Of a stretch of DNA of 64,000 bases, positions 27,222-48,509 are shown piece after piece. Source of the DNA: a virus. The stretch spans positions 1 through 64,000 of IMG/VR virus record IMGVR_UViG_3300045978_000284, one strand, 5' to 3'. The first letter of the stretch is position 1, and every line of letters begins with the position of its first letter. Both the position numbers and the translations under genes were made by a program. Under the pieces are notes generated by a model that made no database searches, was not told where the DNA came from, and saw only the letters and a list, made by a program, of their open reading frames with translations.

Positions 27222-30200
27222 ATGATCGGGGACTGGATCAAGCGCATCACGGGCCGGCACGAGCCGACCGGACGGCCGGTGATCCAGATCGTTCCGAGCG
27301 GTCAGCCGCCCACTCCGCTCCCGGGCGCCGCGACGGGCTACATCCCTCGGACCGCGGTCCCGTCGGAAGGTGGTCCACTCGCGGTCGAGAAGGAGCAGGT
27401 TCGTCTCTTCGCCGAGCGTCGCGAAGAGCTGAAGCGGTTCGGGCGCTACGAGCTCGGGGTGACGGGCACGCCGGTCTATGGCGGTCAGATCCTGACCGAG
27501 CCGAACCCGGACATGGCGTTCCCGAAGAGCCTGGCCACGTTCGACAAGATGCGTCGGACCGATGGCCAGGTGCACGCGGCGCTCCTGATCATCATGCTGC
27601 CGATCCTCTCGCTCGACTGGGCCATCGAGCCCTACGCGGAAATCGACGAATCGACCAGCACGCCAAAGGAGGTCACGCCCCTCGATCGCCAGGCGGCGGA
27701 CTTCATCCGGAAGGATCTCCTGGAAGGCTTCCAGCCCTTCAAGCACGTGCTCCGCGAGGTGCTCGGGATGATCTGGGCCGGCTTCTGGATCCTCGAAAAG
27801 ATCTACGAGGTCCGGGAGGACGGCCTGGTGCATCTGCACAAGCTCGGCACGCGCCTGCCCCAGACGATCTTCCGGTGGGGCGTGCGGCGCAACGGCGAGC
27901 TGGAGTTCGCCGTCCAGCGCGGCGTCGATCCCTCGACGGGCGGGACGATCGAGCAGACGCTCCCGGCCGAGGACATTCTGATCTTCGTCAACAACCAGGA
28001 AGGGGCGGACTGGCAGGGCCAGTCGGTGCTGCGCTCGGCCTACAAGCACTTCGAGATGAAGGACTGGCTCTACCGGATCGGCGTGATCAACGTCGAGCGC
28101 GGCGGAGGGTTCCCGGTGCTCTCGCTCCCGGAGGGGATGAACGACCAGGACCTCCAGGCCGCCCGGGACGTGGGCGAATCGATCCACGTGCACGAGCGGG
28201 CCTACGTGCTGGAGCCCCACGGGTGGCGCTTCCGGCTGGAGGGGACGACCTCGCGCATCGGCGACGTCATGGCCCAGGTCGAGCACCACGACCGGATGAT
28301 CTCGGTGAACGTGCTCGCGCAGTTCCTGGCGGCGACCGGCGGCGAGCTGGCGGGCCGCGGGTCGACGGCCGAGTACATGGACATGTTCCTGATGGCCGAG
28401 GAGGTGGTCATCGCGAACATCGAAGAGGTGTTCAACTCCGGCCTCGTCCGCCAGCTGGTGGACTACAACTTCCGGGTCGAGCCCGGGCACTACCCGAAGC
28501 TCAAGGCGCAGAACGTCCGCGGGTTCAACGTGCGGCGCATGGGCATCGTGCTGCGCACCATGGTCGATGGCCGCCTGATCACCCCGGACGAGCCCCTCGA
28601 AGAGTTCCTGCGCGAGGCGATGGGCTTGCCGCGAGCCGATCTCGATACCCGGCGCGACCCGATGGCCCAGATGATGGCCGCCGGTGGCCAGGGAGGGGAC
28701 CTCGGGGGCCTCGGGGCTCTCCTGGGGCTGGGTGGCGGTCCAAAGAAGCCAGGCGGTCCGGGTGGGCCCCCGACGCCGGGTGCCCCCACGCAGTCGAAGC
28801 TGGGCAAGCCAGGGCCGGAGACGGGTGTGCCGACCCAGGCCGCCAAGGCTGATCCCGTGTCGCCGATCCCGGGCGAGAATCCACTGCTGCCCTCCGACAA
28901 CCCGAAATGGCAGCAGAAGGAGGCGCTGCTCGCGGAGCGTGCGGAGGACGACGAGTGCATCTGGCGCACGATCGGCGGCAACCCGGTCTGCATCAAGGCT
29001 GGGCATGGCGGACACCGTGAGGGCCAGCGACCCTATCGCCACTCCTCCGGGCAAACTCCCGTGTCGAGCTTCGCGAGCGACCAGCCAAAGGGCCGCGCAG
29101 GACAGGACGAACGGGAGAACCTGCGCTGGCTGACCAGGCCCAGCGACTATGACATCGGTCGCACGTCGGACCGCTTTACCGTCGAGCACGGTCCGTTGCG
29201 CGTGGATGGCGTCATTGGTGACCGGGGCGGCACGCGGACGGCGGACATCAGGGTGTCAAACATGGAAAAGGTCGCGCCGTTCCCGTCCGGCGCCGAGCTG
29301 CCAGATCAATCCATGCCGCCAGTGGCGGCGAGCACCGTCGATCCTGGGAGCATGAGGGCGCTCCTGCGCGAGGTGCAGGCCGAGCTGGTCAAGCGCGGCG
29401 TCTCCCAGGCGATCTTGCCGCAGCCGGATAAGTCCTGGCGCGTCCCGCGCAAGATCCTTGATCGCCTCGGGGCCACGAAGGTCGACATCCCATTCCGCAC
29501 CCCTTCGCCCAAGGAGAAAGCCATGCGCCGGGACCTGGGAATCCCGGCCCCGACAGACGCCGACCGGGGCTCGCTCGTCAAGACCGAGTCCATGAAGGCC
29601 CTCGCTGAGATCTCCGATGAGGACTTCGCGCTGGGCGAGCTGGGCGAGTTCGTCAGCTCGACGGAGCTGCGCATCCCGGAGTGGGAGACCGAGCTGGCGC
29701 GCTACGCGGCCGCAATCCCCGCCGCGGATCTCGCCCAGGACGGTGTGGTCGGAAAGCACCACGTCACCCTGAAGTACGGGCTGGCCACGTCGAACGCGGA
29801 GGACCTGCGTCGGCTCGCGGCATCCCTGCCGACCATGACGCTGCGCCTGGGGGCCACGATGGTCTTCCCCAAGCCCGAGGCGGACATCCTGGTGATGCGG
29901 GTGTTCGGCGAGGGCCTGGAGGAGGCGCATGAGCAGATCCAGCGGTACACGCCCTGCCAGGAGGACGAGCAGCCGTACCTGCCGCACGTGACCCTGGCGT
30001 ATCTCAAGCCAGGCGCCGGCGTTCGCTACGCAGGAGATCCGGCGCTCGCGGGTCGGGCGGCGATCGCCACGGAGCTGTGGTTCCGCCCCTCGACGACCTC
30101 GAAGCTCCCGGACCAGGCGCTCCCGCTGGGCGTCGAGGACATGCAGCTCGCCGGGATCGAGGAGGCCTGGGCCAAGCCGCTGATGATCTCGCGCCCGCTC

Positions 30201-30995
30201 CGCCCACTCGAGCGCGCGGTCAATCTCCACGAGATCGACCGGCGCTGCAAGCTGACGGCGACCCGCATGCTCCAGACGGTGCGCCCGATCGGCCGCCAGA
30301 TGGCCGAGGCGATGGTGAAGGCCTGCCGGGAGTGCGGCGAGGACAACATCCAGTCCCTCATGGACTACCGGGTGCCGCTGCAGGGCAAGATGGCCTCGGC
30401 GTGCAAGACCTACCTCGCGGACATGTTCGACTTCGGGCAGGCCCAGGTGCGCGAAGAGCTGGCCCGGCAGCACCGCCAAGCGCAGAACCCGGAGAGCGAT
30501 CTCCTGCTGGCGGAGCCGCCGCGGCCCATCGACAACGAGAAGCGCGCCCGGGACGTCATCAACCTGAAGGCCGACCTGCTCTCGCGGCGCTGGGCGGAGC
30601 GCCTCAAGGAATCCGCCATGAACGTGATGCTGGCGGCCGCGCGCAGCGGGATGCCCCCGGGCGAGGCCGCGCAGCGCATCCAGGAGGCCGCGGACGAGAT
30701 CACCGATCGCTCGTCGCGCCAGCTCGTGATGAACACGCTCGGGGACGCCTTCGGCCTCGGGCGCCAGGTGGAGGCCCACCGGCAGCGCGACTACATCGGC
30801 GAGGCCGAGTACTCCGCGATCCTCGACGAGAACACCTGTGACCCGTGCCGTCAGCTCGACGGACGCACGGGGCAGCTGGACGAGCCGGCGATGCAGGTGC
30901 CGAACCCGAACTGCGCCGGCGAGCGCTACGGCTCGAGCTGTAGGTGCGTTCTCGTTTTTAGATATCGTGGACCATCCGGGGGCAGTGGGTCATGA
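27222..30995 (+). CDS. Portal protein (DUF935/Mu gp29-like) fused to a GNAT-like domain, a 2H phosphoesterase (Acb1/2'-5' ligase fold) and a MuF minor head domain
   Basis: Portal: FDKMRRTDGQVHAAL, GFWILEKIY, GQSVLRSAY, QLVDYNF; 2H motifs HHVTLKYG (29757) and PHVTLAYL (29985); MuF: YSAILDENTCDPCRQLDG..PNPNC..CRC. Confidence 0.88.
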   Translation: MIGDWIKRITGRHEPTGRPVIQIVPSGQPPTPLPGAATGYIPRTAVPSEGGPLAVEKEQVRLFAERREELKRFGRYELGVTGTPVYGGQILTEPNPDMAFPKSLATFDKMRRTDGQVHAALLIIMLPILSLDWAIEPYAEIDESTSTPKEVTPLDRQAADFIRKDLLEGFQPFKHVLREVLGMIWAGFWILEKIYEVREDGLVHLHKLGTRLPQTIFRWGVRRNGELEFAVQRGVDPSTGGTIEQTLPAEDILIFVNNQEGADWQGQSVLRSAYKHFEMKDWLYRIGVINVERGGGFPVLSLPEGMNDQDLQAARDVGESIHVHERAYVLEPHGWRFRLEGTTSRIGDVMAQVEHHDRMISVNVLAQFLAATGGELAGRGSTAEYMDMFLMAEEVVIANIEEVFNSGLVRQLVDYNFRVEPGHYPKLKAQNVRGFNVRRMGIVLRTMVDGRLITPDEPLEEFLREAMGLPRADLDTRRDPMAQMMAAGGQGGDLGGLGALLGLGGGPKKPGGPGGPPTPGAPTQSKLGKPGPETGVPTQAAKADPVSPIPGENPLLPSDNPKWQQKEALLAERAEDDECIWRTIGGNPVCIKAGHGGHREGQRPYRHSSGQTPVSSFASDQPKGRAGQDERENLRWLTRPSDYDIGRTSDRFTVEHGPLRVDGVIGDRGGTRTADIRVSNMEKVAPFPSGAELPDQSMPPVAASTVDPGSMRALLREVQAELVKRGVSQAILPQPDKSWRVPRKILDRLGATKVDIPFRTPSPKEKAMRRDLGIPAPTDADRGSLVKTESMKALAEISDEDFALGELGEFVSSTELRIPEWETELARYAAAIPAADLAQDGVVGKHHVTLKYGLATSNAEDLRRLAASLPTMTLRLGATMVFPKPEADILVMRVFGEGLEEAHEQIQRYTPCQEDEQPYLPHVTLAYLKPGAGVRYAGDPALAGRAAIATELWFRPSTTSKLPDQALPLGVEDMQLAGIEEAWAKPLMISRPLRPLERAVNLHEIDRRCKLTATRMLQTVRPIGRQMAEAMVKACRECGEDNIQSLMDYRVPLQGKMASACKTYLADMFDFGQAQVREELARQHRQAQNPESDLLLAEPPRPIDNEKRARDVINLKADLLSRRWAERLKESAMNVMLAAARSGMPPGEAAQRIQEAADEITDRSSRQLVMNTLGDAFGLGRQVEAHRQRDYIGEAEYSAILDENTCDPCRQLDGRTGQLDEPAMQVPNPNCAGERYGSSCRCVLVFRYRGPSGGSGS

Positions 30996-31762
30996 ACCAG
31001 CTGGCCATCCCCGCGCATAACGACCCACGCTCTTGGGCGGCGCACGATCCGGGCGATCGCTGCGGCAGCCTCCTCCGTCAGGCCAGTGGAGCCGATCCAG
31101 ACGTAGCAGCATCGCCAGCCCATGGCATTGAGCGCCGCGACCCGCCGCTGGATCTTCGGTATTCGACGCGGGTTCGAGTTGGCAGCGTGCACCTCGATGT
31201 CCAGGGCACCGATTGCCAGGTCAAGGTTGTAGGGCCCCACCGCGCGCTGCGGCTGAACGCGCAAGCCGAGGTGCCCGAGCATGATCTCCAGCTCGGTCTC
31301 CCAGCGGCCCCGCTTCCGCAGACTCCGCGCTGCGGTTCGGGCGCCGTTCGCCCGCGCCGTCTCGGTGTGTGCCCCTGCGGTCAAGGCGGCTCTAGCCGCG
31401 GTGTCCATCCGGCTCAGCCGGAGACGCAGGCTCGCCGAGCGGCCTCGGCGCGCCACGCCCGCGATGCGGAGCAGCCGAGCGACCACAAGCCGGCCGACGC
31501 CAAAGGCTTCTGCCAAGGCTTTCTCCGACTCGCCAGCCCGGTACCGAGCCAGAACCGCGTCGCGGATGTCGGCGTGGCGATCGGCATGTGCCATGAGGAG
31601 GGCCTCACGACGCGGGCGCGCCGTCACCCCGGCCAGACCAAGGTATCGCTGGATCGACGCAACGCTCACCCTCAGTTGGGTGGCCACCTGGGTATAGCTC
31701 AGGCCGCCCTGATAGAGCTCAGCCGCGAGTGCTTCAAGGTCTGGGCGGCGGGGCCGTGGCAT
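30926..31762 (-). CDS. Free-standing HTH-HTH + Vsr/DUF559-like endonuclease (homing endonuclease-like)
   Basis: Two HTH repeats (YQGGLSYTQVATQLRVS; YRAGESEKALAEAFGVG), then WETELEIML..QRAVGPYNLDLAI..DIEVH..GWRCCYVW; only convincing minus-strand gene. Confidence 0.8.
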   Translation of the reverse strand: MPRPRRPDLEALAAELYQGGLSYTQVATQLRVSVASIQRYLGLAGVTARPRREALLMAHADRHADIRDAVLARYRAGESEKALAEAFGVGRLVVARLLRIAGVARRGRSASLRLRLSRMDTAARAALTAGAHTETARANGARTAARSLRKRGRWETELEIMLGHLGLRVQPQRAVGPYNLDLAIGALDIEVHAANSNPRRIPKIQRRVAALNAMGWRCCYVWIGSTGLTEEAAAAIARIVRRPRAWVVMRGDGQLVHDPLPPDGPRYLKTRTHLQLEP

Positions 31763-31796
31763 GCGTAGAGATATATCACAACAGGAGGTCAAGCCC

Positions 31797-32639
31797 ATGG
31801 TGACGGAAATGCTGGTGCAGGCGCAGCCCCAGATCGTGATGCCCCGGACGATCTACCAGGCCGATTGCTGGGAGCACTTCCACCCGCTCCGCCTGGGCGA
31901 GTACCGCTGCTCGACGCCAGGCGGCGACTGTCCGCTCGTGAAGGCCCGGGCGGCGGTGCGGTGGCACCTGAAGTGGTCGGAGGTCTACCACAACATCGTG
32001 GTGACGGCGGGCCTGAACCACGTCATGTCTCGGCTCATGCGGTCCTCGGCCGTGGGCGGGGCCACCCTGGGCTACAACGACGGCCGCCGGCTGCCGACCG
32101 CCTGGATCGCCTCGACCGCGTACTCGGTGGGCGACGTCGTGCGGCCGACTGGGGCCTCGGCCCAGGATCCGAACAACCGCTTCTTCGTCTGCCAGGTGGC
32201 GGGCACCTCGGCGGGCTCGCAGCCGACCTGGCCGAACACCGCGGGCGGCACGGTCACCGACAACACCGTCACGTGGGCAGAGGGAAGCCAGTGGTACATC
32301 GGTCTCGTGAACGGGCCGACGGAAACCGACTACAACCCGGCCGACACGATGGCCTCGCACGCCGGGTGGACGGAGAACGTGACCTACTCGAACACGACCC
32401 GGGTGGCCTACATTCCGGGTGCGGTGTCGGCGGGCTCGTGCAACAACTCCGGGAACCTGGCGGCGTTCAACATCAACGGCAGCGCCACGATTTCGGGCTC
32501 GTTCCTGACCGACATCCAGACCAAGGGCGGCACCGCCGGACTGCTCTACGGTGTCGGGGCCTACACGGGCGGCGATAGGTCGCTGACGGGGGGCGATACC
32601 CTCAACGTCACAGTGACTACGAGCGCCACGTCGGCATAG
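31797..32639 (+). CDS. Virion structural/decoration-type protein with an inserted carbohydrate-binding-like module
   Basis: AGGAGG RBS; HNIVVTAGLN..GDTLNVT scaffold with a WIASTAYSVGDVVRP..GTS..QPTW..DNTVTW insertion. Confidence 0.6.
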   Translation: MVTEMLVQAQPQIVMPRTIYQADCWEHFHPLRLGEYRCSTPGGDCPLVKARAAVRWHLKWSEVYHNIVVTAGLNHVMSRLMRSSAVGGATLGYNDGRRLPTAWIASTAYSVGDVVRPTGASAQDPNNRFFVCQVAGTSAGSQPTWPNTAGGTVTDNTVTWAEGSQWYIGLVNGPTETDYNPADTMASHAGWTENVTYSNTTRVAYIPGAVSAGSCNNSGNLAAFNINGSATISGSFLTDIQTKGGTAGLLYGVGAYTGGDRSLTGGDTLNVTVTTSATSA

Positions 32640-32648
32640 GAGGCAGGG

Positions 32649-33026
32649 ATGCGACAGGAGACCGTCGAGAAGGATGGCAAGACGTCGACCGTGTGCGTGG
32701 TGGAGGCCGGCGAGGAGGACCGCGTGTGGCTCTTCGTCGATGCGGAGGGCCAAGAGGTCAGCCGGCTGAACGTTCCCGCGGGCCAGGCGGCGACGGTGAA
32801 GATGCCGCAGGGCTCGAAGCGCGAGAAGAACGCGGAGGGCTGGGAGCGCACGGTGCCGGTGCCGACCGTGGCGATCCTGGCCCCCGTGGAGACGGGTGCG
32901 GCCGCGGAGAAGCTCCTGGCCCAGACCGATCTGCCCCCGGGCTACGAGCTGATCCGGCTCTCGCACGGGGTGGTTCTGCTGCCGCCAAACGGGCAGGGGT
33001 GGAAGCTGCCGCCCAAGGGGGCCTGA
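32649..33026 (+). CDS. Hypothetical protein
   Basis: GGAGG RBS; open frame. Confidence 0.55.
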   Translation: MRQETVEKDGKTSTVCVVEAGEEDRVWLFVDAEGQEVSRLNVPAGQAATVKMPQGSKREKNAEGWERTVPVPTVAILAPVETGAAAEKLLAQTDLPPGYELIRLSHGVVLLPPNGQGWKLPPKGA

Positions 33027-33027
33027 G

Positions 33028-33210
33028 ATGGACATCTCGATCGCCGTCATCTGCGCCCTGATCCTGGTGGCGGCGTTCCTGCTCACGCACTTCATCCCGA
33101 TGCCTTCCTGGGTGGCAGGGATCCTCTGGGGGCTGGCGGTGCTGGCCATCATCGTCATCGTCACGCGCGCCCTCGGGATCCGAACGGGTCTTGCCATGCT
33201 CACCCTGTGA
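33028..33210 (+). CDS. Small two-TM membrane protein
   Basis: ISIAVICALILVAAFLL and WVAGILWGLAVLAIIVIV. Confidence 0.6.
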   Translation: MDISIAVICALILVAAFLLTHFIPMPSWVAGILWGLAVLAIIVIVTRALGIRTGLAMLTL

Positions 33211-33222
33211 GGCCCTAGATCC

Positions 33223-34107
33223 GTGTGGACGATCCCGAACGACGACGGGAGCGCGCAGGCCCAGTACCAGTCCCAGCTCGACAGCGTGGACCTGGAGATC
33301 CTGGTCCGCGCGCTGGGCGGGTCCGCGCGCGCCGGCGTGGTGACGGGGTGCGCGGTCAATGCCCAGGGCTCCCCGAACATGACCGTGCAGGTGACCGCGG
33401 GCCTCGTCCAGTTCGGGAATATCCTGAAGCCGATCACGGCCAAGACCGTCACCATCACCACCGCGCACGCGACCCTGCCCCGCTTCGATCTGATCGAGGT
33501 CAACGCGTCGGACGCCGGCTTCGCCCGGGAGGGGACGCCGGCAGTCTCGCCACGGTTCCCGTTCCCGGACACCGACCGGGTGGTGCTGGCCTCGGTGTTC
33601 GTGCCGGCCGCGATCTCGTCGATCGCCCAGGACAAGATCGTCGACAAGCGCGCCGGGGTGCCGGGGGTGGTCGTCAACCCGCGCCTCGCCGATCTCGCCA
33701 AGACGTCGGACAACACGATTGCGACCGATTCCGCGTTCTCGGCGCCCATGGCCGCGCAAGGGAAGTACCTGCTGATCCTCAAGATCTGGTACAACACGGC
33801 AGCGAATCCGGACTTCAAGTGGCGTCTGATTGGCCCGGCCTCGCCGGCGGCGATCAATCTCAACGGCCAGTACGTGATCCCCAACGCCACCCAGCTGGTC
33901 GCCCCGTTTCGCATGACGGCCTACTCCACGTCGGACGAGACCATCCTGTCCGGCGCGACGGGCGAAGGCTGGCTGCTCGTCGAGGGGTACATCGAGAACG
34001 GTCTCAACGCGGGATTCCTCGAGTTCCAGTGGGCGCAGAACACCTCGAACGCCACGGCCACCACGGTGCGCGGGGCGAGCTATCTGCAGCTGATTCCGGT
34101 GGGCTGA
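33223..34107 (+). CDS. Putative virion fibre/receptor-binding-type protein (paralog of the next gene)
   Basis: GVVTGCAV..MTVQVTAG..PRFDLI..VLASVFVPA..IVDKR N-terminal module; KIWYNT..DFKW..FQWA..RGASY. Confidence 0.6.
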   Translation: MWTIPNDDGSAQAQYQSQLDSVDLEILVRALGGSARAGVVTGCAVNAQGSPNMTVQVTAGLVQFGNILKPITAKTVTITTAHATLPRFDLIEVNASDAGFAREGTPAVSPRFPFPDTDRVVLASVFVPAAISSIAQDKIVDKRAGVPGVVVNPRLADLAKTSDNTIATDSAFSAPMAAQGKYLLILKIWYNTAANPDFKWRLIGPASPAAINLNGQYVIPNATQLVAPFRMTAYSTSDETILSGATGEGWLLVEGYIENGLNAGFLEFQWAQNTSNATATTVRGASYLQLIPVG

Positions 34108-34108
34108 G

Positions 34109-37682: not shown

Positions 37683-37691
37683 CCCCGTCGC

Positions 37692-39080: not shown

Positions 39081-39454
39081 GGCCCAACTCCTACTGGCAC
39101 AGTACCGAGCGGACGACGGGGGCGTACACGGTGAAGGCCCTGAAGGACGAGGACGGGATCGTCCTGACGAGCCTCGATACCCTGACCCTCTCGGTGTGGG
39201 ATCTCAAATCGGGCGCGATCATCAACGGGCGCGACCGGCAGGACGTGCTCAACCAGAACGACGTGACGTTCAATGGGGACGGCTCTCTGCTCTGGCGCGT
39301 CCAGGCCGCCGACCGGCCGATCCTGGACGACACGCAGGACTGGGAGGACCACGTCGCCATGTTCGAGTTCACCTATGCGGGCGGGGGGCGAACCGGCCAC
39401 TGGGTGCTCCAGGACCGGATCGACAATCTCCAGAAGGTGCCGGCGACGCCGTGA
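39077..39454 (+). CDS. Hypothetical structural protein (BppU-N-like)
   Basis: ERTTG.Y...LKDEDG..LTL..D..SG.IINGRD.Q pattern; coupled to its neighbours. Confidence 0.5.
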   Translation: MRPNSYWHSTERTTGAYTVKALKDEDGIVLTSLDTLTLSVWDLKSGAIINGRDRQDVLNQNDVTFNGDGSLLWRVQAADRPILDDTQDWEDHVAMFEFTYAGGGRTGHWVLQDRIDNLQKVPATP

Positions 39455-42400
39455 GCGCGAAGTGGGACGTGGTTCTGGCCGAGCGCCTGCTGGCGGACAA
39501 AGAGCGCTCGGGCATCGAGGCGTTCATGCGCGGCACCGGGCGAAAGCGCGGCGGCGGCGAACAGGGTGGCGGCGGTGGTGACGAGGACGACGGAGACTGC
39601 AAGTGGGTCACCATCCGCGGTAACCCCGTCTGCCTGACGCCGGGTCATGGTGGCCACCGGAAGGGCGAGTCCATCGCGAAGTCCCAGGCGGCCTACTCCG
39701 ATGTACCCACGGGGAAGGGGGGCCGCGTGCGCGCGGTGTCCCGGATCTGGAACCCGACCGCCGAGAACACCTGGCGGGGCTCCGGTGCCGTGACACCGAA
39801 GTGGCCCAAGGGCGTCGAGCCCGGAAGAGTGCTCGACCGCTTCCGCTTCAACACGACGTCGATGTCCGCTTCCGGCCACATCGAGGAGGACGAGAACCAA
39901 CGCAAGCGGGCCGTCATCCACGAGGTGGTCAACGACACGCCGAGCCTCCTGACGTCGCAGGAGCGGCGAAACCAGCCGACCGGATCCTACCCGTCGCGCG
40001 CCGGCGAATCCCGCACCCTGCTCCGCGAGCTGATGGTCAGCCTGCGCGACAAGGGGGTGCGGGAGGCCATCCTGCCCCCCAGGGTGGTCGGGGCGGGCGC
40101 CGAGCCGTGGATGGCGTACCAGTCCACGCGCGGGGACAAGCCGTACCCGCGGAGCTGGCCCGGAATGAGCGTGCAGTTCGGCCGCGCCGAGCCCAGGCCA
40201 GGAGTCGTGGCGGGTCCAGGCCTCGGCGATGCGACGGCGCGCCCGGTTCCGCCCCATCGCATCCTCGATCGCCTCAAGGCCAAGCCGGTCACGGACGCGG
40301 GCGGCAAGATCACGGGCTACCGGGTGAACGTCGAGGAGATGCAGTACCTCTGCGAGATGGCATGGCCCGAGGATCGCGTCCTGGCGGATCCGGAGCGGCG
40401 GCGCGTGGTGGCCGCCTTCGACTTCGACGGCACGCTGGCCCAGTACCAGGGGTGGGGCGACGGGACACCGGGCGATCCGATCCCGGGCATGCGCGAGGTC
40501 ATCGACCAGCTGCAGGCCGCCGGCGCCGAGGTCCTGATCTTCTCGACGCGGGATGCCGACCAGATCCGGGCCTGGCTCACGAAGCACGAGTGGCCGGCCC
40601 TGGAGGTGACGAACAAGAAGCACCCGCGGATCACGGTGTACATCGACGACCGGGCCCTCGAGTACGAGCCCGAGACGCTCGACACCCTGGCCGTCCGGGT
40701 CATGAACTTCCGCCCGTGGTGGCAGACGGTCGACCACCAGCTGGCGGACGAGGACGACGACTGCACCTGGATCACGATCGACGGCCGCCACATCTGCATC
40801 CAGCCCAAGCACGCCTGGCATGACCGGACGCCGCGCGTGAAAGTCAGCCGCGCGCCGCACTGGCGACGTGAGCCGATCGAGGGCAAGCGCATCAGCTGGT
40901 CCCAGCAGGGGAAGATGGGGGAGCGCCTGGCGATCGCGCATCTCAAGCGCCTTGGGTTCCGGGACGCGCGGCCGGCCACGAAGATCTCGAACTTTCCCGT
41001 CGACCTGGTGCACGGGGACACCCTGGTCGAGGTCAAGACGGGGCTCGCCAGCAACACGCAGAAGAGCCAGCACTGGCGGACCACGATCGGCGAGCCCGGC
41101 AAGGCGGAGCGGCGCTGGCTGCGCGAGCTGGACCGGGACAAGAAGCTCCGGTGGAACGCCGAGAAGATGCGCCAGATCCATCTCCGCAAGCAGGCGGTCG
41201 TGAAGGCGCTCTCGCGCGAGCTGGGCCGTCCGATCAAGACGGAGACCGTCGCGCTCATCCTCGACCCGGGCCGGCGCAAGGCCGACGTGTACCGCTTCGA
41301 GGGCTTCCCCAGGCGCGTGGGATGGCGCTCGCCCACGGCCCAGCAGGGCTACGTGACCACCTACGACTACAAGCTGAGCGAGGACCTGTGGGACGTACCG
41401 GCCCCGCCGCTGCGGCCGGACGTCTACGAACTCGCCGAGCCCGAGGCGGAGCCCGCTGATCCGGAGACGGTCGATGACGAGGCCGACGACGACGCGGACT
41501 GGCCGTCCTGGGTGCCGCTGGGCGTGCGCGCCGAGGTCGAGGGTGCGCTGTCGCGCTGGAGCCGCGACGTCGAGAAGGCGATCGCGAAGGAGGACAGCCG
41601 GTCGCTCGCCGAGGAGGACGACGACGAGTGCATCTGGCGCATGATCGGGGGCCACCCGGTCTGCATCCGCGCGAGCCACGCGGAGCACGGCCGCGGCGAG
41701 CGACCGGACCGTGGGGCCCCCCGGGAGACCCGGCGGTTCCGCTCCGAGACCACCCCACGCGCCCCGAAGCCCCCGGCGAAGGGCATCAACCCGGAGCCCT
41801 TGACCACCCGGGTGGCGAGCCCTCGGCTCTTCAGCCCGGTTGCCCGGGCGGTGCCGCTGGGCCATCGCTACGGGGAAAAGCCGTCCGGCGACCCGGAGGG
41901 CCACCTGAACTCGGTGTTCCGCGTGACGCTGGAGAACGGCAACGACGCGGTGTGGAAACCGGCCGCCGGCGAGCACAGCGCGTTCTCCGGCGCCGATCCC
42001 GCCAAGCTGAAAGGATTCACGCAGGACCTCCGGGCGTTCGGCCAGCCAGGCACCTACTGGAAGCGCGAGGTGGCGGCCTCCCGGATCGCCCGGGCGGTGG
42101 GCATGGAGGACCTGGTGCCGTCCACCGACCCGGCCTCGTTCGGCACCGAGCACGGGGCGCTTCAGACGTTCCAGCGCGGGGTGAGCCCCATGACCCTCGG
42201 GCGCGATCTCTACGGCAAGCGGCTCGAGGACGTCGAGCGCGCGGTGCTGTACGACGCGGTCATCGGGAACTTCGACCGCCACTTCGGCAACTGGCTGGTG
42301 GCCCCCACCGGCAAGCTGATCCTGATCGACCATGGCCACGCCTTCCCGCGCACCCAGGTCGTGAAGCACCCGGGGGACCTCCGGGAAGGTCTCCGGGCAG

Positions 42401-42594
42401 GCGGCGAAATGAACCGCGAGATCCCGGAGGCCGTGAAGGAGCCCTGGAAGAAGATCGAGAGCCAGCTCCCGACGCTCCTGCGGGGTCTTTCGTCGGCCAC
42501 CATCAAGACGACGCGGCAGCGGCTCGGCCTCGCCCTCAAGCCAGGCCAGACGTGGATCGGCCTGCGGCGCGACCTGGAGCGGCCGTTCAAGTAG
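39451..42594 (+). CDS. Multi-domain polyprotein: GNAT-like domain + HAD phosphatase + PD-(D/E)XK nuclease + PI3/PI4-kinase/HipA-like kinase, with three C-W-I-G-C tags
   Basis: GTG start overlapping the upstream TGA; DFDGTL..FSTR..YIDDRA; GERLA..PVDL..VEVKTG; AVWKP..REVAA..DRHFGNWL..IDHGHAFP. Confidence 0.85.
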   Translation: MSAKWDVVLAERLLADKERSGIEAFMRGTGRKRGGGEQGGGGGDEDDGDCKWVTIRGNPVCLTPGHGGHRKGESIAKSQAAYSDVPTGKGGRVRAVSRIWNPTAENTWRGSGAVTPKWPKGVEPGRVLDRFRFNTTSMSASGHIEEDENQRKRAVIHEVVNDTPSLLTSQERRNQPTGSYPSRAGESRTLLRELMVSLRDKGVREAILPPRVVGAGAEPWMAYQSTRGDKPYPRSWPGMSVQFGRAEPRPGVVAGPGLGDATARPVPPHRILDRLKAKPVTDAGGKITGYRVNVEEMQYLCEMAWPEDRVLADPERRRVVAAFDFDGTLAQYQGWGDGTPGDPIPGMREVIDQLQAAGAEVLIFSTRDADQIRAWLTKHEWPALEVTNKKHPRITVYIDDRALEYEPETLDTLAVRVMNFRPWWQTVDHQLADEDDDCTWITIDGRHICIQPKHAWHDRTPRVKVSRAPHWRREPIEGKRISWSQQGKMGERLAIAHLKRLGFRDARPATKISNFPVDLVHGDTLVEVKTGLASNTQKSQHWRTTIGEPGKAERRWLRELDRDKKLRWNAEKMRQIHLRKQAVVKALSRELGRPIKTETVALILDPGRRKADVYRFEGFPRRVGWRSPTAQQGYVTTYDYKLSEDLWDVPAPPLRPDVYELAEPEAEPADPETVDDEADDDADWPSWVPLGVRAEVEGALSRWSRDVEKAIAKEDSRSLAEEDDDECIWRMIGGHPVCIRASHAEHGRGERPDRGAPRETRRFRSETTPRAPKPPAKGINPEPLTTRVASPRLFSPVARAVPLGHRYGEKPSGDPEGHLNSVFRVTLENGNDAVWKPAAGEHSAFSGADPAKLKGFTQDLRAFGQPGTYWKREVAASRIARAVGMEDLVPSTDPASFGTEHGALQTFQRGVSPMTLGRDLYGKRLEDVERAVLYDAVIGNFDRHFGNWLVAPTGKLILIDHGHAFPRTQVVKHPGDLREGLRAGGEMNREIPEAVKEPWKKIESQLPTLLRGLSSATIKTTRQRLGLALKPGQTWIGLRRDLERPFK

Positions 42595-42876
42595 CGCGTC
42601 ACGCGCCCGTCACGGTTCCGGGCTCACTAAGCGATGGGCGGGTAAGGCCGCTGAGCGAGACACCTGCGGACGCGGGCCGGGACGCGCCCACCCCGGCGAT
42701 TCACGCGCAGGACCGCGGCGCCCCGAGGACGGCGCTGGTGGTGTGGTCATGAGCGGCGAGCGCGTGCGGTACGGTCTCGCAGGAGGGAAGTTGACGTCAC
42801 GCTAGCCCGCATGCGATAAGGTCAATCAACGCGCTCCCGGCTGTGACCGGGGGCGGCATGGCTGACCCGCAAAGGG

Positions 42877-42909
42877 AGGCCCGACGCGTCGTCGTCGGGC
42901 CTTTCTCTT
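42877..42909 (+). terminator. Intrinsic terminator-like hairpin
   Basis: AGGCCCGACG-CGTCGT-CGTCGGGCCT followed by TTCTCTT. Confidence 0.55.
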
Positions 42910-43065
42910 GTCTGGTCCTGACAACGATTCGCACGGCTCGACCCAGCGCCCGGAGTCATGACCCGGGCGCCGGCGAAATGCCGGGACACCGAGGGGCGGT
43001 TTCTGGTGCACCAGCCAGGAACCGCCCTTCTGTGTTCTGGGGCCGGGGTCAGAGGGAGAGCAGGC

Positions 43066-43746
43066 ATGATCAAGCCGTTCAAGGGACTGGCGCTCTTCGG
43101 TCGCATCCGGACTCGCCGCGGCGAGGTCGCAACGTTCCCGGGCGCGCGCGCCTTCAACATTCTTCGGGTCACGGGCGTCGTGGCGGATCCGGAGACGATC
43201 ACCATCGGCGCCGATGTGTACGAGATCGACCTGGCGGCCGACGGCGTGACGGCCGGACGCATTCAGGTGGTTCCGGCCACGAACTCGGCGGACAACTTCC
43301 TCACGGCGTTCGCGGCCAAGGTCAACCAGAGCGGCCAGGGGATCGCCGGCGCCGGTGTCGAGGCGGTGCGCGCGCTCAAGATCAGCGCCACGGAGGTCGC
43401 CGTCTTCACGGCGACGCCGCGGGTGTCGACCATGGCGCTCGCCGAGAGCATGACGAACGGCGCCTGGGACTCGGCGGCCCTGCGCGGCGGCCTGGCCACC
43501 TCGGAGCGCCGGATGTTCATGGACGCCCGGGTCCCGACGGCCGGCGAGGTGACGGCGGGCACGATGCACTTCGTCCTGGACTTCACGCCGCGCGCGGTGG
43601 GGATCAACGTCGTGGTCACCTCGACGGGGGTCATCAAGGCCTGGGACGGCGGCCGCGTCCTGGCGGCCGGCCTGCTCACCCTCAACAACGCCGGATCCGT
43701 GGACTGGGCCGCCACCGACACGGTCCACGTCCTGGCCATGGAGTAG
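43066..43746 (+). CDS. Putative head-associated structural protein
   Basis: GGGAG RBS; ETITIGADVYE beta-rich motif typical of phage structural proteins. Confidence 0.55.
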   Translation: MIKPFKGLALFGRIRTRRGEVATFPGARAFNILRVTGVVADPETITIGADVYEIDLAADGVTAGRIQVVPATNSADNFLTAFAAKVNQSGQGIAGAGVEAVRALKISATEVAVFTATPRVSTMALAESMTNGAWDSAALRGGLATSERRMFMDARVPTAGEVTAGTMHFVLDFTPRAVGINVVVTSTGVIKAWDGGRVLAAGLLTLNNAGSVDWAATDTVHVLAME

Positions 43747-43754
43747 CCGAGGGC

Positions 43755-44036
43755 GTGAGCGTCGGAGGTCTGGATGCCGCAGAGCTGGCCCGCGAGCTGG
43801 CGCCGCTCAACCCGAGGATCTCGGTGGGCATTCGCCAGGGGGGCGCGGAGGGCAAGGGCAAGCGCATGCCATATGACAAGCTGAGCGGCCTGCCGGACCA
43901 CGTGCGCAAGCGCGGCAAGACGGCCAGCAAGCGCTGGCGGGCGATCTTCAACAGCGTGTTCGCGAAGGACGGCGAGGCGAAGGCCTTCGCGGCGGCCAAC
44001 GCCTCGCTGGATGACCCGCATTCCGGGCACACCTGA
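43755..44036 (+). CDS. ChaB-like protein
   Basis: MPYDKLSGLPDHVRK..ASKRWRAIFNS..EAKAFAAA (ChaB pattern starts at 43866). Confidence 0.7.
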   Translation: MSVGGLDAAELARELAPLNPRISVGIRQGGAEGKGKRMPYDKLSGLPDHVRKRGKTASKRWRAIFNSVFAKDGEAKAFAAANASLDDPHSGHT

Positions 44037-44042
44037 GACCGC

Positions 44043-45806
44043 ATGCTGAGCGACCGGATCGGTCGCGTGATCGAGGGGTACGAGCTCTCAACGTCGCTCT
44101 TCGGGGAGCCGAAGTCGAAGCTCCTGCTCTTCCCGCGCGGCCAGTTCGATCATCCGAAGTACGGCAAGATGACCTTCGACGACGAGTTCTTCGACGAGGT
44201 CGTCGCCAACTACAAGAACAAGGTGCTCGGCCGGACCGAGCCCTACATCGACTTCGACCACCAGAAGGGCCGCGCGGCCGCGTGGATCCGCGAGCTGTCG
44301 GTCGATCCCGATGGCCTGTGGGCCTCGCGCGTCGACTGGACGCCCGCCGGCGAGACGGCGGTGCGCTCGGGCGAGTACCGCTACGTGTCGCCCTGGTGGG
44401 GCTCCGTGTCCGACGCGGCGAACGGCGAGACCTACGATCGCGTGCTGCGCGGGGCCGGGCTCACGAACGTCCCCTATCTGAAGCAGCTTCCGCCGGTGGC
44501 CCAGGACGCGGTCCTTGAGGAGAGCGAGCCGCTGGTCGAGCTGATGCTCAGCGAGTTCCTGCTCGCGGGCAACCCGTACCGGGCGGCCGATGGGACGTTC
44601 ACCGACGCGGCCCACGACGTCGGCGGTGGCGGTGTCGGTGGTGGTGGCGGCAAGGGCGGCGGCGCCGGGCCCGCTGCGGTCAAGGTCTCGCGCAGCGCGG
44701 CCCGGGGCGCCCAGATCGGCTGGGACCTCGGGCGCCTCTTCGGCTCCACGAAGCTCTCCGGGGCAGCGGCGACCGGCATCGGGATCGCGGCCGGTCTCGG
44801 GTCGCTGGCCGCGGCGAATCCGGATGCGGCCATGAAAGTGGCGGGCCTGGCGAAGGCCCTCGGCTCGCGTGTCATGCGTCACGGGCCGGCGATCGCTGGA
44901 ACCGTCCTGGCCGGCGCGGGCATGCTCGGGCTGTCGCGCGTCGGCCGGCCCCCCGCGCCAGGGCGACAGTCACCGGCCGAGCTTGAAGTCGGCGCGGCCA
45001 TGGCGCGGCAGGGCTTGCTCCCGCCCGCGGCTCCCGGTGGCGCTCCCGCGAAGCCAGCGCTGGGAGCTCTGGCGACCGGGAAAATCCAGAACGCCAAGGC
45101 CGTGCTGCGCGAGGTGCTCTCGCGCTATCGCTCGATGCCCCTCAAGCCGGAGGCGCCCGCCGCTCCAGCGGCGCCCGCCGAACCGCCCTACACGTCCTGG
45201 GTCGAGCGGCAGATCGCGTCGGGCGAGAAGGGCTCGCGAGGCACGCGGCGGCTGCGCAAGGGCGGCGGCGTCGGCTACCAGGGCGGCCGCAACGTGCGCC
45301 TCGACGACGTGCTCGCCACGTTCCGGGAGTTCCGCCTGGCGGATGAGGAGGACGACGCCCTGGAGGCCATCGACGTCGATGCCATCCCGGACGATCTCGC
45401 CGAGGCGATCCTGAAGATGCTGCAGGCCTACGTGGAGCGCGAAGAGAAGGCGCTCTCCGAGCGGCTGCATCGCACGCTGACCGGCCAGGCGCTCGCCGAT
45501 GGCGACCCGGAGGACGAGGACGAGGAAGAGGACGAGGACGAGGACGAGGACGAGGATCTCGAGTCCCTGCCGAACCGGGTGCGCGCAGCCTGGAACGCGA
45601 TGTACCCGATGGGCATCTCCATGAACGGCGCGCGCCATCCCTACCTCACCAAGATCTTCGAGGAGCACGTGATCGCGGAGGACGGCGAGCGGCCGAACAC
45701 GTGGTGGCAGATTCCGTGGCGAGAGGTCGGCCCACAGATCGTCTTCGACATGGCGGCCCGCATCCCGGTCCACCAGGTGTGGCTGCCTGCGGGAGCGACC
45801 GCATGA
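44043..45806 (+). CDS. Mu gpI-like prohead protease with a C-terminal NPY-tagged cargo module and acidic tail
   Basis: IDFDH..AAAWI..DGLWA..VDWTPAG..GEYRYVSP..GAGLTNVPYL. Confidence 0.88.
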   Translation: MLSDRIGRVIEGYELSTSLFGEPKSKLLLFPRGQFDHPKYGKMTFDDEFFDEVVANYKNKVLGRTEPYIDFDHQKGRAAAWIRELSVDPDGLWASRVDWTPAGETAVRSGEYRYVSPWWGSVSDAANGETYDRVLRGAGLTNVPYLKQLPPVAQDAVLEESEPLVELMLSEFLLAGNPYRAADGTFTDAAHDVGGGGVGGGGGKGGGAGPAAVKVSRSAARGAQIGWDLGRLFGSTKLSGAAATGIGIAAGLGSLAAANPDAAMKVAGLAKALGSRVMRHGPAIAGTVLAGAGMLGLSRVGRPPAPGRQSPAELEVGAAMARQGLLPPAAPGGAPAKPALGALATGKIQNAKAVLREVLSRYRSMPLKPEAPAAPAAPAEPPYTSWVERQIASGEKGSRGTRRLRKGGGVGYQGGRNVRLDDVLATFREFRLADEEDDALEAIDVDAIPDDLAEAILKMLQAYVEREEKALSERLHRTLTGQALADGDPEDEDEEEDEDEDEDEDLESLPNRVRAAWNAMYPMGISMNGARHPYLTKIFEEHVIAEDGERPNTWWQIPWREVGPQIVFDMAARIPVHQVWLPAGATA

Positions 45807-47719
45807 GCCTCCGGACGACCCTCGCCGAGCACACCCTGGCCAACCCCTACCGGGACGAGGGCGGTCGGTTCACGACAGAGTCACAAGACACGGGTGGACG
45901 CACTGGGGGCGCGGCGAAAGGCGAGGGGCGCCTCGCCAAGACCGCCAAGCGCGTCGCGAAGGCGGCGGGGGCAGCACTGGATCTCCCGGAGGCCGAAACC
46001 CGGACGATCAGCGCCGATAGAGCGGCGGTGGGGAAGGCGATCAAGAGAGGCATCGGGCACGGTGTGGTGACCGGCCTGGTGCTCGGTCGGCGCGCCGGGC
46101 TCGTAACTGGAGCTGCGGAGGCCGTGACGCAGCTCTCCAAAGCGCCGAAGCTCCGGCGCACCGTCGACCGCGCCCTCCGCACAGTCAGTCGGGGCGCCAT
46201 CAACCTGGGGCCCAAGGGTGTCGGCCAGCTGATCAATGGCCTGGTCCTCACGGGAAGCCTCGCGTACTCGGCCTACCAGATCTACAAGGGGCTGCAGTCG
46301 CTGCGGCCCCCCGGGCCGAGTCGTCAGCTGGCCGAACCCGATGTGGCCGATCGGGAGTCGTTCGAGGCTGTGCCGGAGGTGATCTGGAAGGCCCTCCTGT
46401 CGGCCCTCAAGGACTACACCAAGCATGGCGATGGCGATCGCCTGCAGCGGGACCTGGCCGCCATCGCGCCGGCCCAGTCCGAGCTATCGGAGACCCTGCA
46501 GGAGTACGCGCTGGCGAACCCGTACCGAGATCGAGAGGGCAAGTTCACCACCGAGGCCGGCGACACGGGCGGCGGCGGGCGCGGTGCAAAGACCGAGAGG
46601 CCGCGCGCGCGCAAGCGCGGCCTGGGCGGTGAATCGGTATCCGAAAGCCTGAAGGTCGGTGCCGCCACTGGCGCGACGATGGCCGTCGGCAGCGCGTTCG
46701 CCATGCCGCCGTTGCATGCGGTTGGGGCCGGCGGCCTCTCGGGGGTCGGGGCGGCGGCCTGGAATATCGGGAAGAGCCCGAAAGGCCGCGCCGCCGTCGC
46801 CAAGACCGTGCGCACGCTGAGCAACGGTGCCATCAAGATCGGCCCCAAGGCCGTGGGCCGCATCCTGAAAGGCGTTAGCGTGGCGGCCACTCTCGGGGGC
46901 AGCGCCGTGGCCATGCACGCGCTCTACAAGGCGATGGGTGGCGGAGGGGATCTCCTCGGAACCTTCCGCGACGAGCTGGCCAAGCCGGGAGGGCCCCGGG
47001 GCGGCCCGGCCCCGTTCTCCCCCTACGGTGGGAACGTGGTGAAAGAGCCCACCTATACGGGAGGAGGTCGTCCCCCCGATCCACCCGATCCGACCATTCG
47101 CCGACCGGGCGACACGGCGGCGGTCGAGTACCGGGGCAAGACGTTCTATGGGAAGACCGAGGACGACGCCATGAACAAGCTCAGGCGAGCCCAGCTCCCC
47201 GAGCAGGGCGCATTCGTCGGAGACACGTCGACCATCTTCCGCGGAACCTCCGGGAAGCCACTCGCCCCCGGCCTCGGCATCGTCGGCTACCCGAAGACCA
47301 GGGAGGAAGCCGCGGCGCGCACGCAGGCATTCCGGAGCACGGTGTATGGAGGCCAGAAGTTCACATCCAAGTCGAAGCCGATCCCGACGCTCGAGCCGCC
47401 CAAGGCGCGGTTGGGTGGCCTCCTGGGTCCGCCGCGCGTGGACACGCTCGAAGACCTGCTGAAGCGCCCCGGCTTCAAGCTGGCCGAGCCGGACGCGCCG
47501 GACGATCTGCCCGAACCGCTCCTGAAGGCCATGGTGTCGGCCCTCCAGGACTACGCGAAGCACGAGGACGCCGACCGTCTCCGGCGGGATCTCGCGGCGA
47601 TCCAGGCGCGCGTGGACGCGGCCGCGGACCAGACGGAACCCGCACTGTCAGAACCTTCCATCGGCGAGGTCCTGGGCCAGCAGGCCCGGAGAAGCCTGCT
47701 CGCCGCGATCGCCCACTGA
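45803..47719 (+). CDS. Repeat polyprotein: 2x [NPYRD tag - basic/hydrophobic Gly-Ala segment - acidic helical module]
   Basis: LANPYRDEGGRFTT (45836) and LANPYRDREGKFTT (46511); duplicated VRTLSNGAIKIGPKAVG / LRTVSRGAINLGPKGVG and AL.DY.KH.D.DRL.RDLAAI. Confidence 0.8.
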   Translation: MSLRTTLAEHTLANPYRDEGGRFTTESQDTGGRTGGAAKGEGRLAKTAKRVAKAAGAALDLPEAETRTISADRAAVGKAIKRGIGHGVVTGLVLGRRAGLVTGAAEAVTQLSKAPKLRRTVDRALRTVSRGAINLGPKGVGQLINGLVLTGSLAYSAYQIYKGLQSLRPPGPSRQLAEPDVADRESFEAVPEVIWKALLSALKDYTKHGDGDRLQRDLAAIAPAQSELSETLQEYALANPYRDREGKFTTEAGDTGGGGRGAKTERPRARKRGLGGESVSESLKVGAATGATMAVGSAFAMPPLHAVGAGGLSGVGAAAWNIGKSPKGRAAVAKTVRTLSNGAIKIGPKAVGRILKGVSVAATLGGSAVAMHALYKAMGGGGDLLGTFRDELAKPGGPRGGPAPFSPYGGNVVKEPTYTGGGRPPDPPDPTIRRPGDTAAVEYRGKTFYGKTEDDAMNKLRRAQLPEQGAFVGDTSTIFRGTSGKPLAPGLGIVGYPKTREEAAARTQAFRSTVYGGQKFTSKSKPIPTLEPPKARLGGLLGPPRVDTLEDLLKRPGFKLAEPDAPDDLPEPLLKAMVSALQDYAKHEDADRLRRDLAAIQARVDAAADQTEPALSEPSIGEVLGQQARRSLLAAIAH

Positions 47720-47735
47720 GGAGAGGAGGCCAACG

Positions 47736-48509
47736 ATGGGCAAGTTGCTCGTTCAGCTGCGCAAGGATCTCGCCCTCGCCGAGGACGCGACGGTCGTCGA
47801 GGTCATGGACCACATGGGCCGCATGCTCGCGGACGACATGACCGAGGAGGAGAAGAAGAAGGCCGAGGAAGAGGCCGCCGCCGCCAATGCGGCGAAGAGC
47901 GCCGAGGAGGAGGCCAAGAAGGAAGAGGACAAGGAGATGTCGGAGGTGCGCGCGCTGCTCAAGATCGCCAAGCCGAAGCCGGGCGCGATCCTGACGGCGG
48001 TGCGGACTCTCACGACGTCGGCCTCCGACCACGTGCTCTCGGAGACCGCGCTGGGCCGCGAGCTTGCCGAGCTGCGCCTGTCCCACAAGGAGCTGTCAGA
48101 TCAGGTCGAGGAGCTGCGCCCCGCGGCCGCGGAAGCGACGCGCCTGGCGGCCGAGGCGAAGGCCACCAAGAAGGCCACCTTCTTCGATCGCCAGCTCCAC
48201 GAGGGCAAGCTGAAGCCGGCGGAGCGGTCGTTCTATGAGGCCCAGTACGACCTCAACGAGGACGCGGTGGTCAAGTTCTTCGGCGAGCGCAAGCCGGAGA
48301 TCAAGCTCGGCCAGTGGCCGTCGGTCAATCGCCCGGTCGAGGAGCCCGCGGCCGGGGATCCGCGCGAGCGGGTGCTGGCCGAGGCGCAGAAGCTCGCCCT
48401 CGCCGAGAAGATTCCGCTCGACCAGGCCGTGCACCGCGTGACGGCCCAGGACCACGAGCTGGCCGAATCGGTGCGGGGCATGTACGGCCCGGCGGGCGTC
48501 CGCCGGTAA
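47736..48509 (+). CDS. Capsid scaffolding protein (Mu gpZ-like)
   Basis: Coiled-coil EK-rich sequence, EGKLKPAE motif typical of the gpI C-terminal scaffold; upstream of decoration and capsid genes. Confidence 0.75.
   Translation: MGKLLVQLRKDLALAEDATVVEVMDHMGRMLADDMTEEEKKKAEEEAAAANAAKSAEEEAKKEEDKEMSEVRALLKIAKPKPGAILTAVRTLTTSASDHVLSETALGRELAELRLSHKELSDQVEELRPAAAEATRLAAEAKATKKATFFDRQLHEGKLKPAERSFYEAQYDLNEDAVVKFFGERKPEIKLGQWPSVNRPVEEPAAGDPRERVLAEAQKLALAEKIPLDQAVHRVTAQDHELAESVRGMYGPAGVRR

Follow-up and report, generated by a model that had tools for sequence, protein, structure and literature searches.

Candidate tag-bearing, protease-processed virion cargo in the Mu-type head-gene block of an uncultured high-GC phage

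In bacteriophage T4 the prohead protease gp21 cuts after L/I-x-E, the scaffold is degraded, and internal proteins as well as enzymes such as Alt are loaded into the prohead and injected, the capsid targeting sequence, which lies upstream of the cut, being removed. The portal protein gpH of phage Mu is shortened during maturation, and the virion RNA polymerase of phage N4 acts intact. Here we describe a head-gene block in a window of 64,000 nucleotides (nt), positions 1 to 64,000 of the 108,431-bp IMG/VR virus record IMGVR_UViG_3300045978_000284, which has about 69% guanine plus cytosine (GC) and an estimated completeness of 96%. The block encodes a portal fusion, a polyvalent protein, an extended protease and a repeat protein, built of modules that mostly carry one of two short repeated peptides, named tag A and tag B below. 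The reading that we favor, by a modest measure, is that these are virion-packaged polyvalent cargo proteins, which the Mu-type prohead protease would cut at L-[AS]-[ED] and whose released modules would keep their tags. Both tags probably mark proteins carried in the capsid, judging from their recurrence in head-linked proteins of many other uncultured phages. Protease-cut, tag-addressed cargo had been proposed in an earlier prediction made from the sequence; the tags, the enrichment of the motif and the linkage to head genes elsewhere speak for it, with the difference that the tags, unlike the T4 targeting sequence, would stay on the cargo.

The closest described relatives are the polyvalent proteins (Iyer 2017, PMC5512222), which include 2H phosphoesterases fused to portal or MuF domains, kinases and GNATs, and for which packaging, injection and proteolytic release are predicted. 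As in those proteins, unrelated enzymes share one polypeptide here and sit among head genes of a portal-terminase phage. At our locus the polyvalent gene, open reading frame (ORF) 39451, encodes at least two unrelated catalytic domains (HAD and PI3_PI4 kinase) plus a nuclease-like motif, and the portal fusion adds a 2H phosphoesterase. Release in the described proteins is ascribed mainly to embedded zincin-type or C-terminal assemblin-type peptidases, whereas the candidate here is a separate Mu-type prohead protease, and the searched portion of the text contains no junction tag or cut-site grammar (PMC5512222). A Glu-ending three-residue motif is also used by the giant phages (phiKZ gp175, SPN3US gp245), in which the portal, ejection proteins and the protease itself are cut; for SPN3US gp245 this motif is A-x-E, and the portal as well as the ejection proteins are among its substrates (PMC10052503). 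There, long propeptides with several cut sites and N-terminal propeptides are taken off single proteins, and portable tags or enzyme polyproteins are not described (PMC10052503). MuF polymorphic toxins (Jamet et al. 2017, PMC5576092) share the fusion of MuF to variable effectors, but they have an N-terminal MuF, one C-terminal toxin and an immunity gene after it, whereas the MuF domain at our locus follows the cargo and belongs to a portal fusion; a linker or junction motif is not mentioned in that text. Polyvalent proteins and portal or MuF fusions to 2H, kinase and GNAT domains are thus already published (PMC5512222); neither tag, nor the arrangement of cut site plus tag, was found described in the literature searched.

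With T4 the locus shares short N-terminal leaders ending in L-x-E-type motifs, a scaffold with many sites, and basic proteins next to enzymes, all of which are here features of the sequence alone. It differs in its protease, which is Mu-like_Pro (PF10123, phrog_328) and not gp21 (S77), and in its cargo, which is polycistronic at the protein level, as fusions. The third difference concerns the tags: the T4 targeting peptide is removed, whereas the tags at this locus lie 3-8 residues downstream of the putative cut and would therefore remain on the cargo. The analogy to the T4 capsid targeting sequence, part of the original prediction, does not hold in this respect.

Two repeated short tags in the head-region ORFs are indeed present, with four copies of tag A and three of tag B (coordinates of this virus are those of the window, and all features given lie on the + strand). 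Tag A is an acidic run followed by C-x-W-x-[TM]-I-x-G-x-x-[VI]-C-[IL] and then H-x-x-H. The portal fusion has one copy and the polyvalent gene has three, with the Cys at nt 28956, 39598, 40762 and 41629. The first copy, reading AEDDE-CIWRTIGGNPVCI-KAGHGGH, stands together with L-A-E (aa 570-572) at 28929..29045, the second at 39571..39687, the third with L-A-D at 40741..40857 and the fourth with L-A-E at 41605..41721; all four were located by regular expression, the first and third with the motif count in addition, and AlphaFold2 predicts a hairpin for the fourth. Tag B, L-A-(G)-N-P-Y-R-x3-G-x-F, has one copy following the protease domain and two in the repeat protein, with the Asn at nt 44571, 45842 and 46517. 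Its first copy (LLAG-NPYRAADGTF, with L-S-E, 44547..44600) and its third (with L-S-E, 46484..46546) were found by regular expression and alignment, and the second (with L-A-E, 45821..45871) by regular expression and an AlphaFold2 model of leader and turn. A regular-expression search of all six frames of the 108,431-bp genome gave no further copies of either tag. The same residues are often encoded by unlike codons in different copies (e.g. 6/14), so that the tags are old copies which selection on the protein has preserved. These synonymous differences rule out both recent gene conversion and recombination junctions as the source of their similarity. The earlier statement that most modules begin with a tag holds for seven of the nine cargo modules, the exceptions being 2H and HAD.

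The putative cut-site motif L-[AS]-[ED] is enriched in the same proteins. Relative to the expectation for each protein from composition-preserving shuffles, it was found 7 times against 1.4 in the polyvalent protein, 6 against 1.5 in the protease, 5 against 1.2 in the repeat protein and 8 against 1.1 in the scaffold, an enrichment of about five-fold in these four. None of 500 shuffles of the scaffold reached 8 sites, and its excess has P = 1.4e-5 (Poisson, composition-based expectation). The remaining proteome is near chance (53 observed, 42 expected), and the major capsid protein has no such site. The order of the residues matters as well, since the ordered tripeptide was counted 30 times, four times the mean of its permutations, and each of the five remaining arrangements of these residue classes 2-16 times. 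The sites lie in N-terminal leaders, at the edges of recognized domains, and 3-8 residues ahead of six of the seven tags; short leaders ending in L-[AS]-E stop at aa 11 in ORF 39451, at aa 9 in ORF 45803 and at aa 16 in the scaffold. Enrichment over shuffles and position at domain edges both bear out the proposal that L-[A/S]-[E/D] marks module boundaries. The eight scaffold sites would fit the degradation of scaffolds by prohead proteases.

The portal fusion gene (27222..30995, 1257 aa, fraction of G or C at third codon positions (GC3) 0.90) consists of portal, linker, tag A, a domain X1, 2H phosphoesterase and MuF. Pfam places Portal_Mu at aa 106-428 (8e-33), 2_5_RNA_ligase2 at 847-932 and Phage_Mu_F at 1143-1244 (2.1e-8), and aa 64-492 can be aligned to solved portal structures. 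X1 (29046..29609), which ends in L-A-E (aa 794-796), is paralogous to a domain Y1 of the polyvalent gene (BLASTP E 4e-15, the tag contributing much to this value). X1 and Y1 are the two domains that had been called GNAT-like, a label that stays putative: no Pfam match at E up to 1 was obtained for them, and the best GNAT row in the Atlas scores 0.85, with only 22% of the members of that cluster carrying the family. Similarity of X1 to other tag A proteins, including the portal-tag-GNAT proteins P0054 and P0062 described below, was not detected beyond the tag. The 2H core, with the two H-x-T motifs HVTLKYG and HVTLAYL, lies at 29760..30017 (Pfam 2_5_RNA_ligase2 2.7e-8); it scores 34.5 bits with the generic 2H model and 17.7 bits with Acb1 (PF23474), below the cut-off of 27.

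The polyvalent gene (39451..42594, 1047 aa, GC3 0.93), delimited into domains with Pfam and PHROGs, begins with a leader ending in L-A-E, followed by tag A, Y1, L-A-D, HAD, L-A-D, tag A and a nuclease-like domain; then come an acidic spacer with L-S-E and L-A-E, another L-A-E, tag A and a PI3/4K-like kinase. Earlier labels for the 2H phosphoesterase and the PI3/4K-like kinase are confirmed by Pfam models, the catalytic core of the latter (DRHFGN, IDHG; 42229..42357) matching PI3_PI4_kinase at 8.3e-9 and 36.1 bits against a cut-off of 27.1. The HAD label is upheld by phrog_1238 (4.7e-12) for the module with the DFDGT motif at 40393..40740, which has no tag of its own, together with the Pfam matches HAD_2, Hydrolase and Hydrolase_6 at about 1e-3, each below its cut-off. 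The PD-(D/E)XK-like module (40858..41382), ending in L-S-E, was read from its sequence (GERLA...FPVDLV...LVEVK); the E...D-L-V...E-V-K motif is clear, no Pfam match was found, and database support is limited to Atlas PDDEXK_14 clusters (0.90), a weak lead.

The protease gene (44043..45806, 587 aa) encodes a Mu-like_Pro domain (aa 29-163, nt 44127-44531; Pfam 1.2e-17, phrog_328 head maturation protease 5.8e-19), followed by L-S-E and tag B, a basic Gly/Ala module, L-A-D with an acidic helix, and a C-terminal domain. With this match, the labels given earlier to the portal, MuF and Mu-type protease are all confirmed by Pfam or PHROGs. A Mu gpZ-like scaffold made from a nested internal start in the protease gene was considered and set aside, the ribosome-binding site being unconvincing. 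The repeat protein (45803..47719, 638 aa) comprises two units, and alignment shows that these and the protease extension are three homologous tag B units, each with a leader ending in L-[AS]-E, tag B, a Gly linker, a basic Gly/Ala segment and an acidic helical segment. The basic segment contains a conserved GP, and L-A-[ED] stands ahead of the acidic helix (L-A-E-P-D in the repeat protein). The basic segments of the repeat protein (146 residues) have 25 and 21 Lys+Arg against 7 and 6 Asp+Glu, and that behind the protease (126 residues) has 13 against 4. These modules had been called membrane-active peptides. The three are homologous, but they are only weakly hydrophobic (Kyte-Doolittle maxima 1.2-1.45) and strongly basic, and for this reason a membrane-active reading is no better supported by their sequence than that of a basic internal, DNA-associated protein. 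No close relatives of the repeat protein were found in IMG/VR, and a search of 5.8 billion proteins gave no homologue of comparable length. The scaffold-like protein (47736..48509, 257 aa) is encoded just upstream of the capsid gene. Its N-terminus (LLVQLRKDLALAED, 47736-47800) is similar to the stretches with which the acidic helical modules end, DRLQRDLAAI and DRLRRDLAAI (46430-46480, 47600-47660), and this similarity hints that the acidic helical modules are scaffold-like.

Tag A was searched for in other phages with a profile of 38 positions made from seven copies and run on 1.84 billion representative proteins (E <= 0.001). It retrieved 74 proteins, 16 of them at <= 1e-10, and 128 copies were counted in 70 proteins, with up to seven per protein and 24 of them near the N-terminus (residues 1-45). 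As a consensus the copies show an acidic run, [DE], [CG], x, W, x, T, [IL], x, G, x, x, [VI], [CFY], I, followed after the core by G-H-x-H or G-x-I-x-K-G-P-x-x-L-x-G-K; no Pfam family spans it. The hairpin W-x-T-x-x-G-x-x-[IV]-x-[IL] heads modules that are fused or adjacent to portal or MuF domains, reading WITKNGRRICI in proteins P0007 and P0008. These two and P0010 are MuF proteins of 2078-2434 aa with 6-7 copies each. The enzymes found with the tag include Acb1, generic 2H, ART-PolyVal, exoenzyme-type ADP-ribosyltransferase (ART), Zeta toxin, RelA_SpoT, topoisomerase IB, GNAT and one PI3_PI4 kinase, with true Acb1 domains in four other tag A proteins. Among 66 further tag A proteins about ten have portal domains and three have MuF. 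Domain maps of nine proteins place tag A either between a head domain and an enzyme or between two enzymes, immediately ahead of the cargo enzyme: P0048 has Portal_Mu (36-366), tag A at 476 and ART, an order that matches the fusion described here, P0054 and P0062 have portal, tag A and GNAT, and P0038 and P0049 have Acb1, tag A, ART, MuF and tag A. The IMG/VR locus of P0008 (L056) encodes a terminase, a lambda-type portal, the seven-tag MuF-polyvalent protein, a 687-aa protein and a capsid protein. The original prediction was staked on the tags being linked to head genes in other phages, and such a link is present in the portal fusions, in the MuF proteins and at L056. As a side observation, the MuF domain of P0007 (2434 aa, seven tag A copies) is interrupted within its Cys motif by an intein-like insertion (Intein_splicing E 5.5e-7; its 30 bits fall short of the cut-off of 35.8 bits).

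Profile searches with both tags had been suggested as a check; the profile served for tag A, and tag B was pursued with a degenerate DNA pattern for NPYRD..G.F in IMG/VR. Strict DNA patterns for tag A in IMG/VR yielded three further phages, the profile being far more productive. About 19 of the 30 loci returned by the tag B pattern contain a real in-frame tag B, in phages of 33-72% GC, and the foreign tag nearly always reads G-[KR]-F, which the pattern did not force. It lies behind a portal-like domain (recognized by eye), at N-termini, and in Gly-zipper proteins of 1300-1700 aa, whose genes come one or two places after MuF fusions in phages with high GC and genomes of about 93-100 kb. Examples at L010:3470-8353 (-), L011:7112-10891 (+) and L007:4654-9729 (-) are Gly/Ala-rich proteins of 1260-1690 aa with tags NPYRD..GKF and EHPRD..GKF. 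They resemble enlarged tag B modules of the phage studied here, and one MuF fusion near such genes is an InPase-MuF.

The tags do not follow the capsid gene. Relatives of the major capsid protein at 36-43% identity were found at 24 IMG/VR loci (L057-L080) with about 30% GC, including six full-length records of 46-62 kb, and neither tag occurs within 10 kb of the capsid relative at any of the 24. The tags therefore do not travel with the capsid or head-gene lineage, and an alignable relative of the cargo genes was not obtained by this route.

Junction motifs ahead of tag A in other phages were looked for in the 16 residues upstream of 125 foreign copies, with 200 resamplings as control. L-x-E was present upstream of 40 of the 125 copies (control mean 10.8, maximum 25) and L-x-E-A upstream of 26 (control 2.2), figures that overstate the support to the extent that copies within one protein are related. 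In one phage (G001/L033; 107 kb, 48% GC, L033 contig 31.8 kb) tag A is preceded by F-L-S-R-[FY]-A-Q-N-L, and motif-like forms of it stand at the N- and C-termini of head-block proteins. A lineage-specific motif ahead of a shared tag is what a protease site plus tag predicts. Also encoded in the head block of this phage are a 2H enzyme, a small protein of GNAT-like type and an N-terminus that resembles tag B (YRADQARDERGRF).

AlphaFold2, run on an alignment of 14 copies, predicts tag A to be a two-stranded beta-hairpin with strands C-I-W-R-M-I (residues 11-16) and H-P-V-C-I-R (residues 19-24), a predicted local distance difference test (pLDDT) score of about 86 over the block and disorder on both flanks. 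For tag B the prediction is a helical leader, a tight turn formed by NPYR..G.F (pLDDT about 76) and disorder beyond it. Neither element is large enough to fold by itself, which makes docking by strand addition a reasonable inference. In about 29% of tag A copies the first Cys is replaced by Gly, and the His pair is missing in many; metal binding cannot be the general role of the tag, as these residues are not universal.

On the reading of packaged and processed cargo, the portal fusion, the four-enzyme polyvalent protein, the extended protease and the repeat protein would co-assemble with the scaffold and the capsid protein into a procapsid. Inside it the Mu-type protease would cut after L-[AS]-[ED], where we infer the exact cut position, degrading the scaffold at its eight sites and splitting the fusions into about nine cargo units. 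With the cut falling 3-8 residues ahead of a tag, the tag would stay at the new N-terminus of each unit. It could then dock by strand addition onto a conserved internal component of the head, for example the portal or MuF, the scaffold or the interior of the capsid, and docking would hold the cargo in the head, or guide its exit, after cleavage. The acidic helical segments may be discarded pro-regions that neutralize the basic modules until DNA arrives. On infection the cargo would leave with the DNA, comprising the 2H, HAD and nuclease-like modules, the PI3/4K-like kinase, the two paralogous domains and the three basic modules.

Several observations weigh against this scheme. Two of the enzymes, 2H and HAD, do without a tag. 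In the portal fusion L-[AS]-[ED] occurs 4 times against 2.1 expected, which is not significant, and two of its sites, at aa 1065 and 1096, fall within the probable MuF region. The tag A proteins checked are all metagenomic, and tblastn, which is insensitive for queries of about 30 aa, found neither tag in 50,697 GenBank phage records. The relatedness of copies within one protein detracts from the upstream L-x-E counts, and the candidate proteases of L033 and L056 have no detectable similarity to the 44043 protease and no Pfam match, and no covariation of motif with protease family emerged. Finally, the cleavage specificity of Mu-I-type proteases was not found documented in the literature consulted.

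Of the other explanations, the one that survives best also has the proteins packaged, but takes the tags for signals of exit or threading through portal and tail, or for peptides that dock to host factors once injected, the protease merely separating the modules. A position downstream of the cuts, once per module, would suit such a signal, given that one tag per polyprotein suffices for loading; likewise, tag B is found in phages whose head proteins differ greatly, and the presence of a tag is not predicted by capsid lineage. On the other hand, tags are fused straight behind portal and MuF domains, which reside in the head, and a host-factor motif was recognized in neither tag. We consider this explanation unlikely, if the most serious competitor.

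Somewhat less likely still is that there is no processing, the genes encoding intact multidomain polyvalent proteins in which the excess of L-[AS]-[ED] reflects acidic helical linkers and the tags are structural connectors, tag A being perhaps a C,C,H,H zinc knuckle. Some polyvalent proteins are transferred whole (PMC5512222), high-GC variants of tag A have four possible metal ligands, and many L[AS][ED] sites lie in acidic helical stretches. Helical linkers would not, however, account for an ordered tripeptide at four times the mean of its permutations, nor for its position at N-terminal leaders and recognized domain edges, and the eight scaffold sites fit degradation; the zinc knuckle is countered by the loss of the first Cys to Gly in about 29% of copies and by the many copies without the His pair. 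That the enzymes are late cytoplasmic proteins, never packaged, with tags for recruitment to the assembly site, co-regulation or turnover by the protease, is quite improbable: packaging is admittedly a deduction and about 8 kb of unrelated orphan genes interrupts the head block, but one tagged set is covalently placed between portal and MuF, the tag follows portals and MuF elsewhere, and the cargo families match known or predicted injected effectors.

Returning to packaged cargo that is cut by the Mu-type protease and keeps its tags, we suggest tentatively, and with less assurance than for this locus itself, that the beta-hairpin and the NPYR/HPR..G[RK]F turn are a general address system of tailed phages, by which any protein standing behind a head-protease cut site and a tag would be loaded into the capsid, freed from its neighbors and delivered to the next host, the tag being kept as a retention or exit handle, and that this phage is a compact example using both tags with a Mu-type protease that cuts at L-[AS]-[ED]. 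The present case adds several points: the two tags share a single head block, an L-[AS]-[ED] motif that is statistically clean goes with a Mu-type protease, a tag B module is embedded in the protease gene, each tag B unit has a basic part followed by an acidic one, and the tags lie on the product side of the cut. If the proposal is true, it would provide a sequence rule for predicting phage proteins that travel in the capsid, and would help to find, in uncultured phages, enzymes that act early in counter-defense and takeover, for instance the Acb1-type 2H esterases, ADP-ribosyltransferases and kinases that stand behind the same tag. Head maturation proteases would then double as polyprotein processors, and short tags could be used for loading chosen proteins into capsids.

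Nearly all genes of the virus are on the + strand, and Portal_Mu, MuF, Mu-like_Pro and the major capsid protein are all encoded in one + strand block. Its order is portal fusion, about 8 kb of orphan genes, polyvalent gene, two small genes, protease, repeat protein, scaffold-like protein, a small ORF and capsid, and the five ORFs considered all show a coding signature (GC3 0.85-0.93). The major capsid protein (49011..49952; phrog_1005 1.7e-86), which is free of tags, matches just Phage_cap_E (3.4e-5) and phrog_1005, and not a Mu gpT-type major head protein. By this protein the nearest cultured phages are Arthrobacter siphophages (36% identity). A downstream ORF of 1909 aa (54906-60635) is probably a tape measure, in which case the phage would be a siphovirus.

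Between the portal-MuF fusion and the polyvalent gene (window 30992-39454) there are about eleven orphan ORFs with no Pfam match. The leader of ORF 34109 ends in L-S-E (aa 13-15) and that of ORF 36019 in L-A-E (aa 9-11), and judging by these leaders their products may be processed too. In the same region, the 60-aa peptide encoded at 33028-33210 resembles a pair of transmembrane segments. Farther downstream, a 397-aa ORF (window 42843-44036) is actually two genes in different frames, the first at 42958-43746, with GC3 up to 1.0, and the second a small ChaB-like ORF at about 43750-44036 (MPYDKLSGLPDHVRK...; Pfam ChaB E 0.28, a weak match), which abuts the protease gene on its upstream side.

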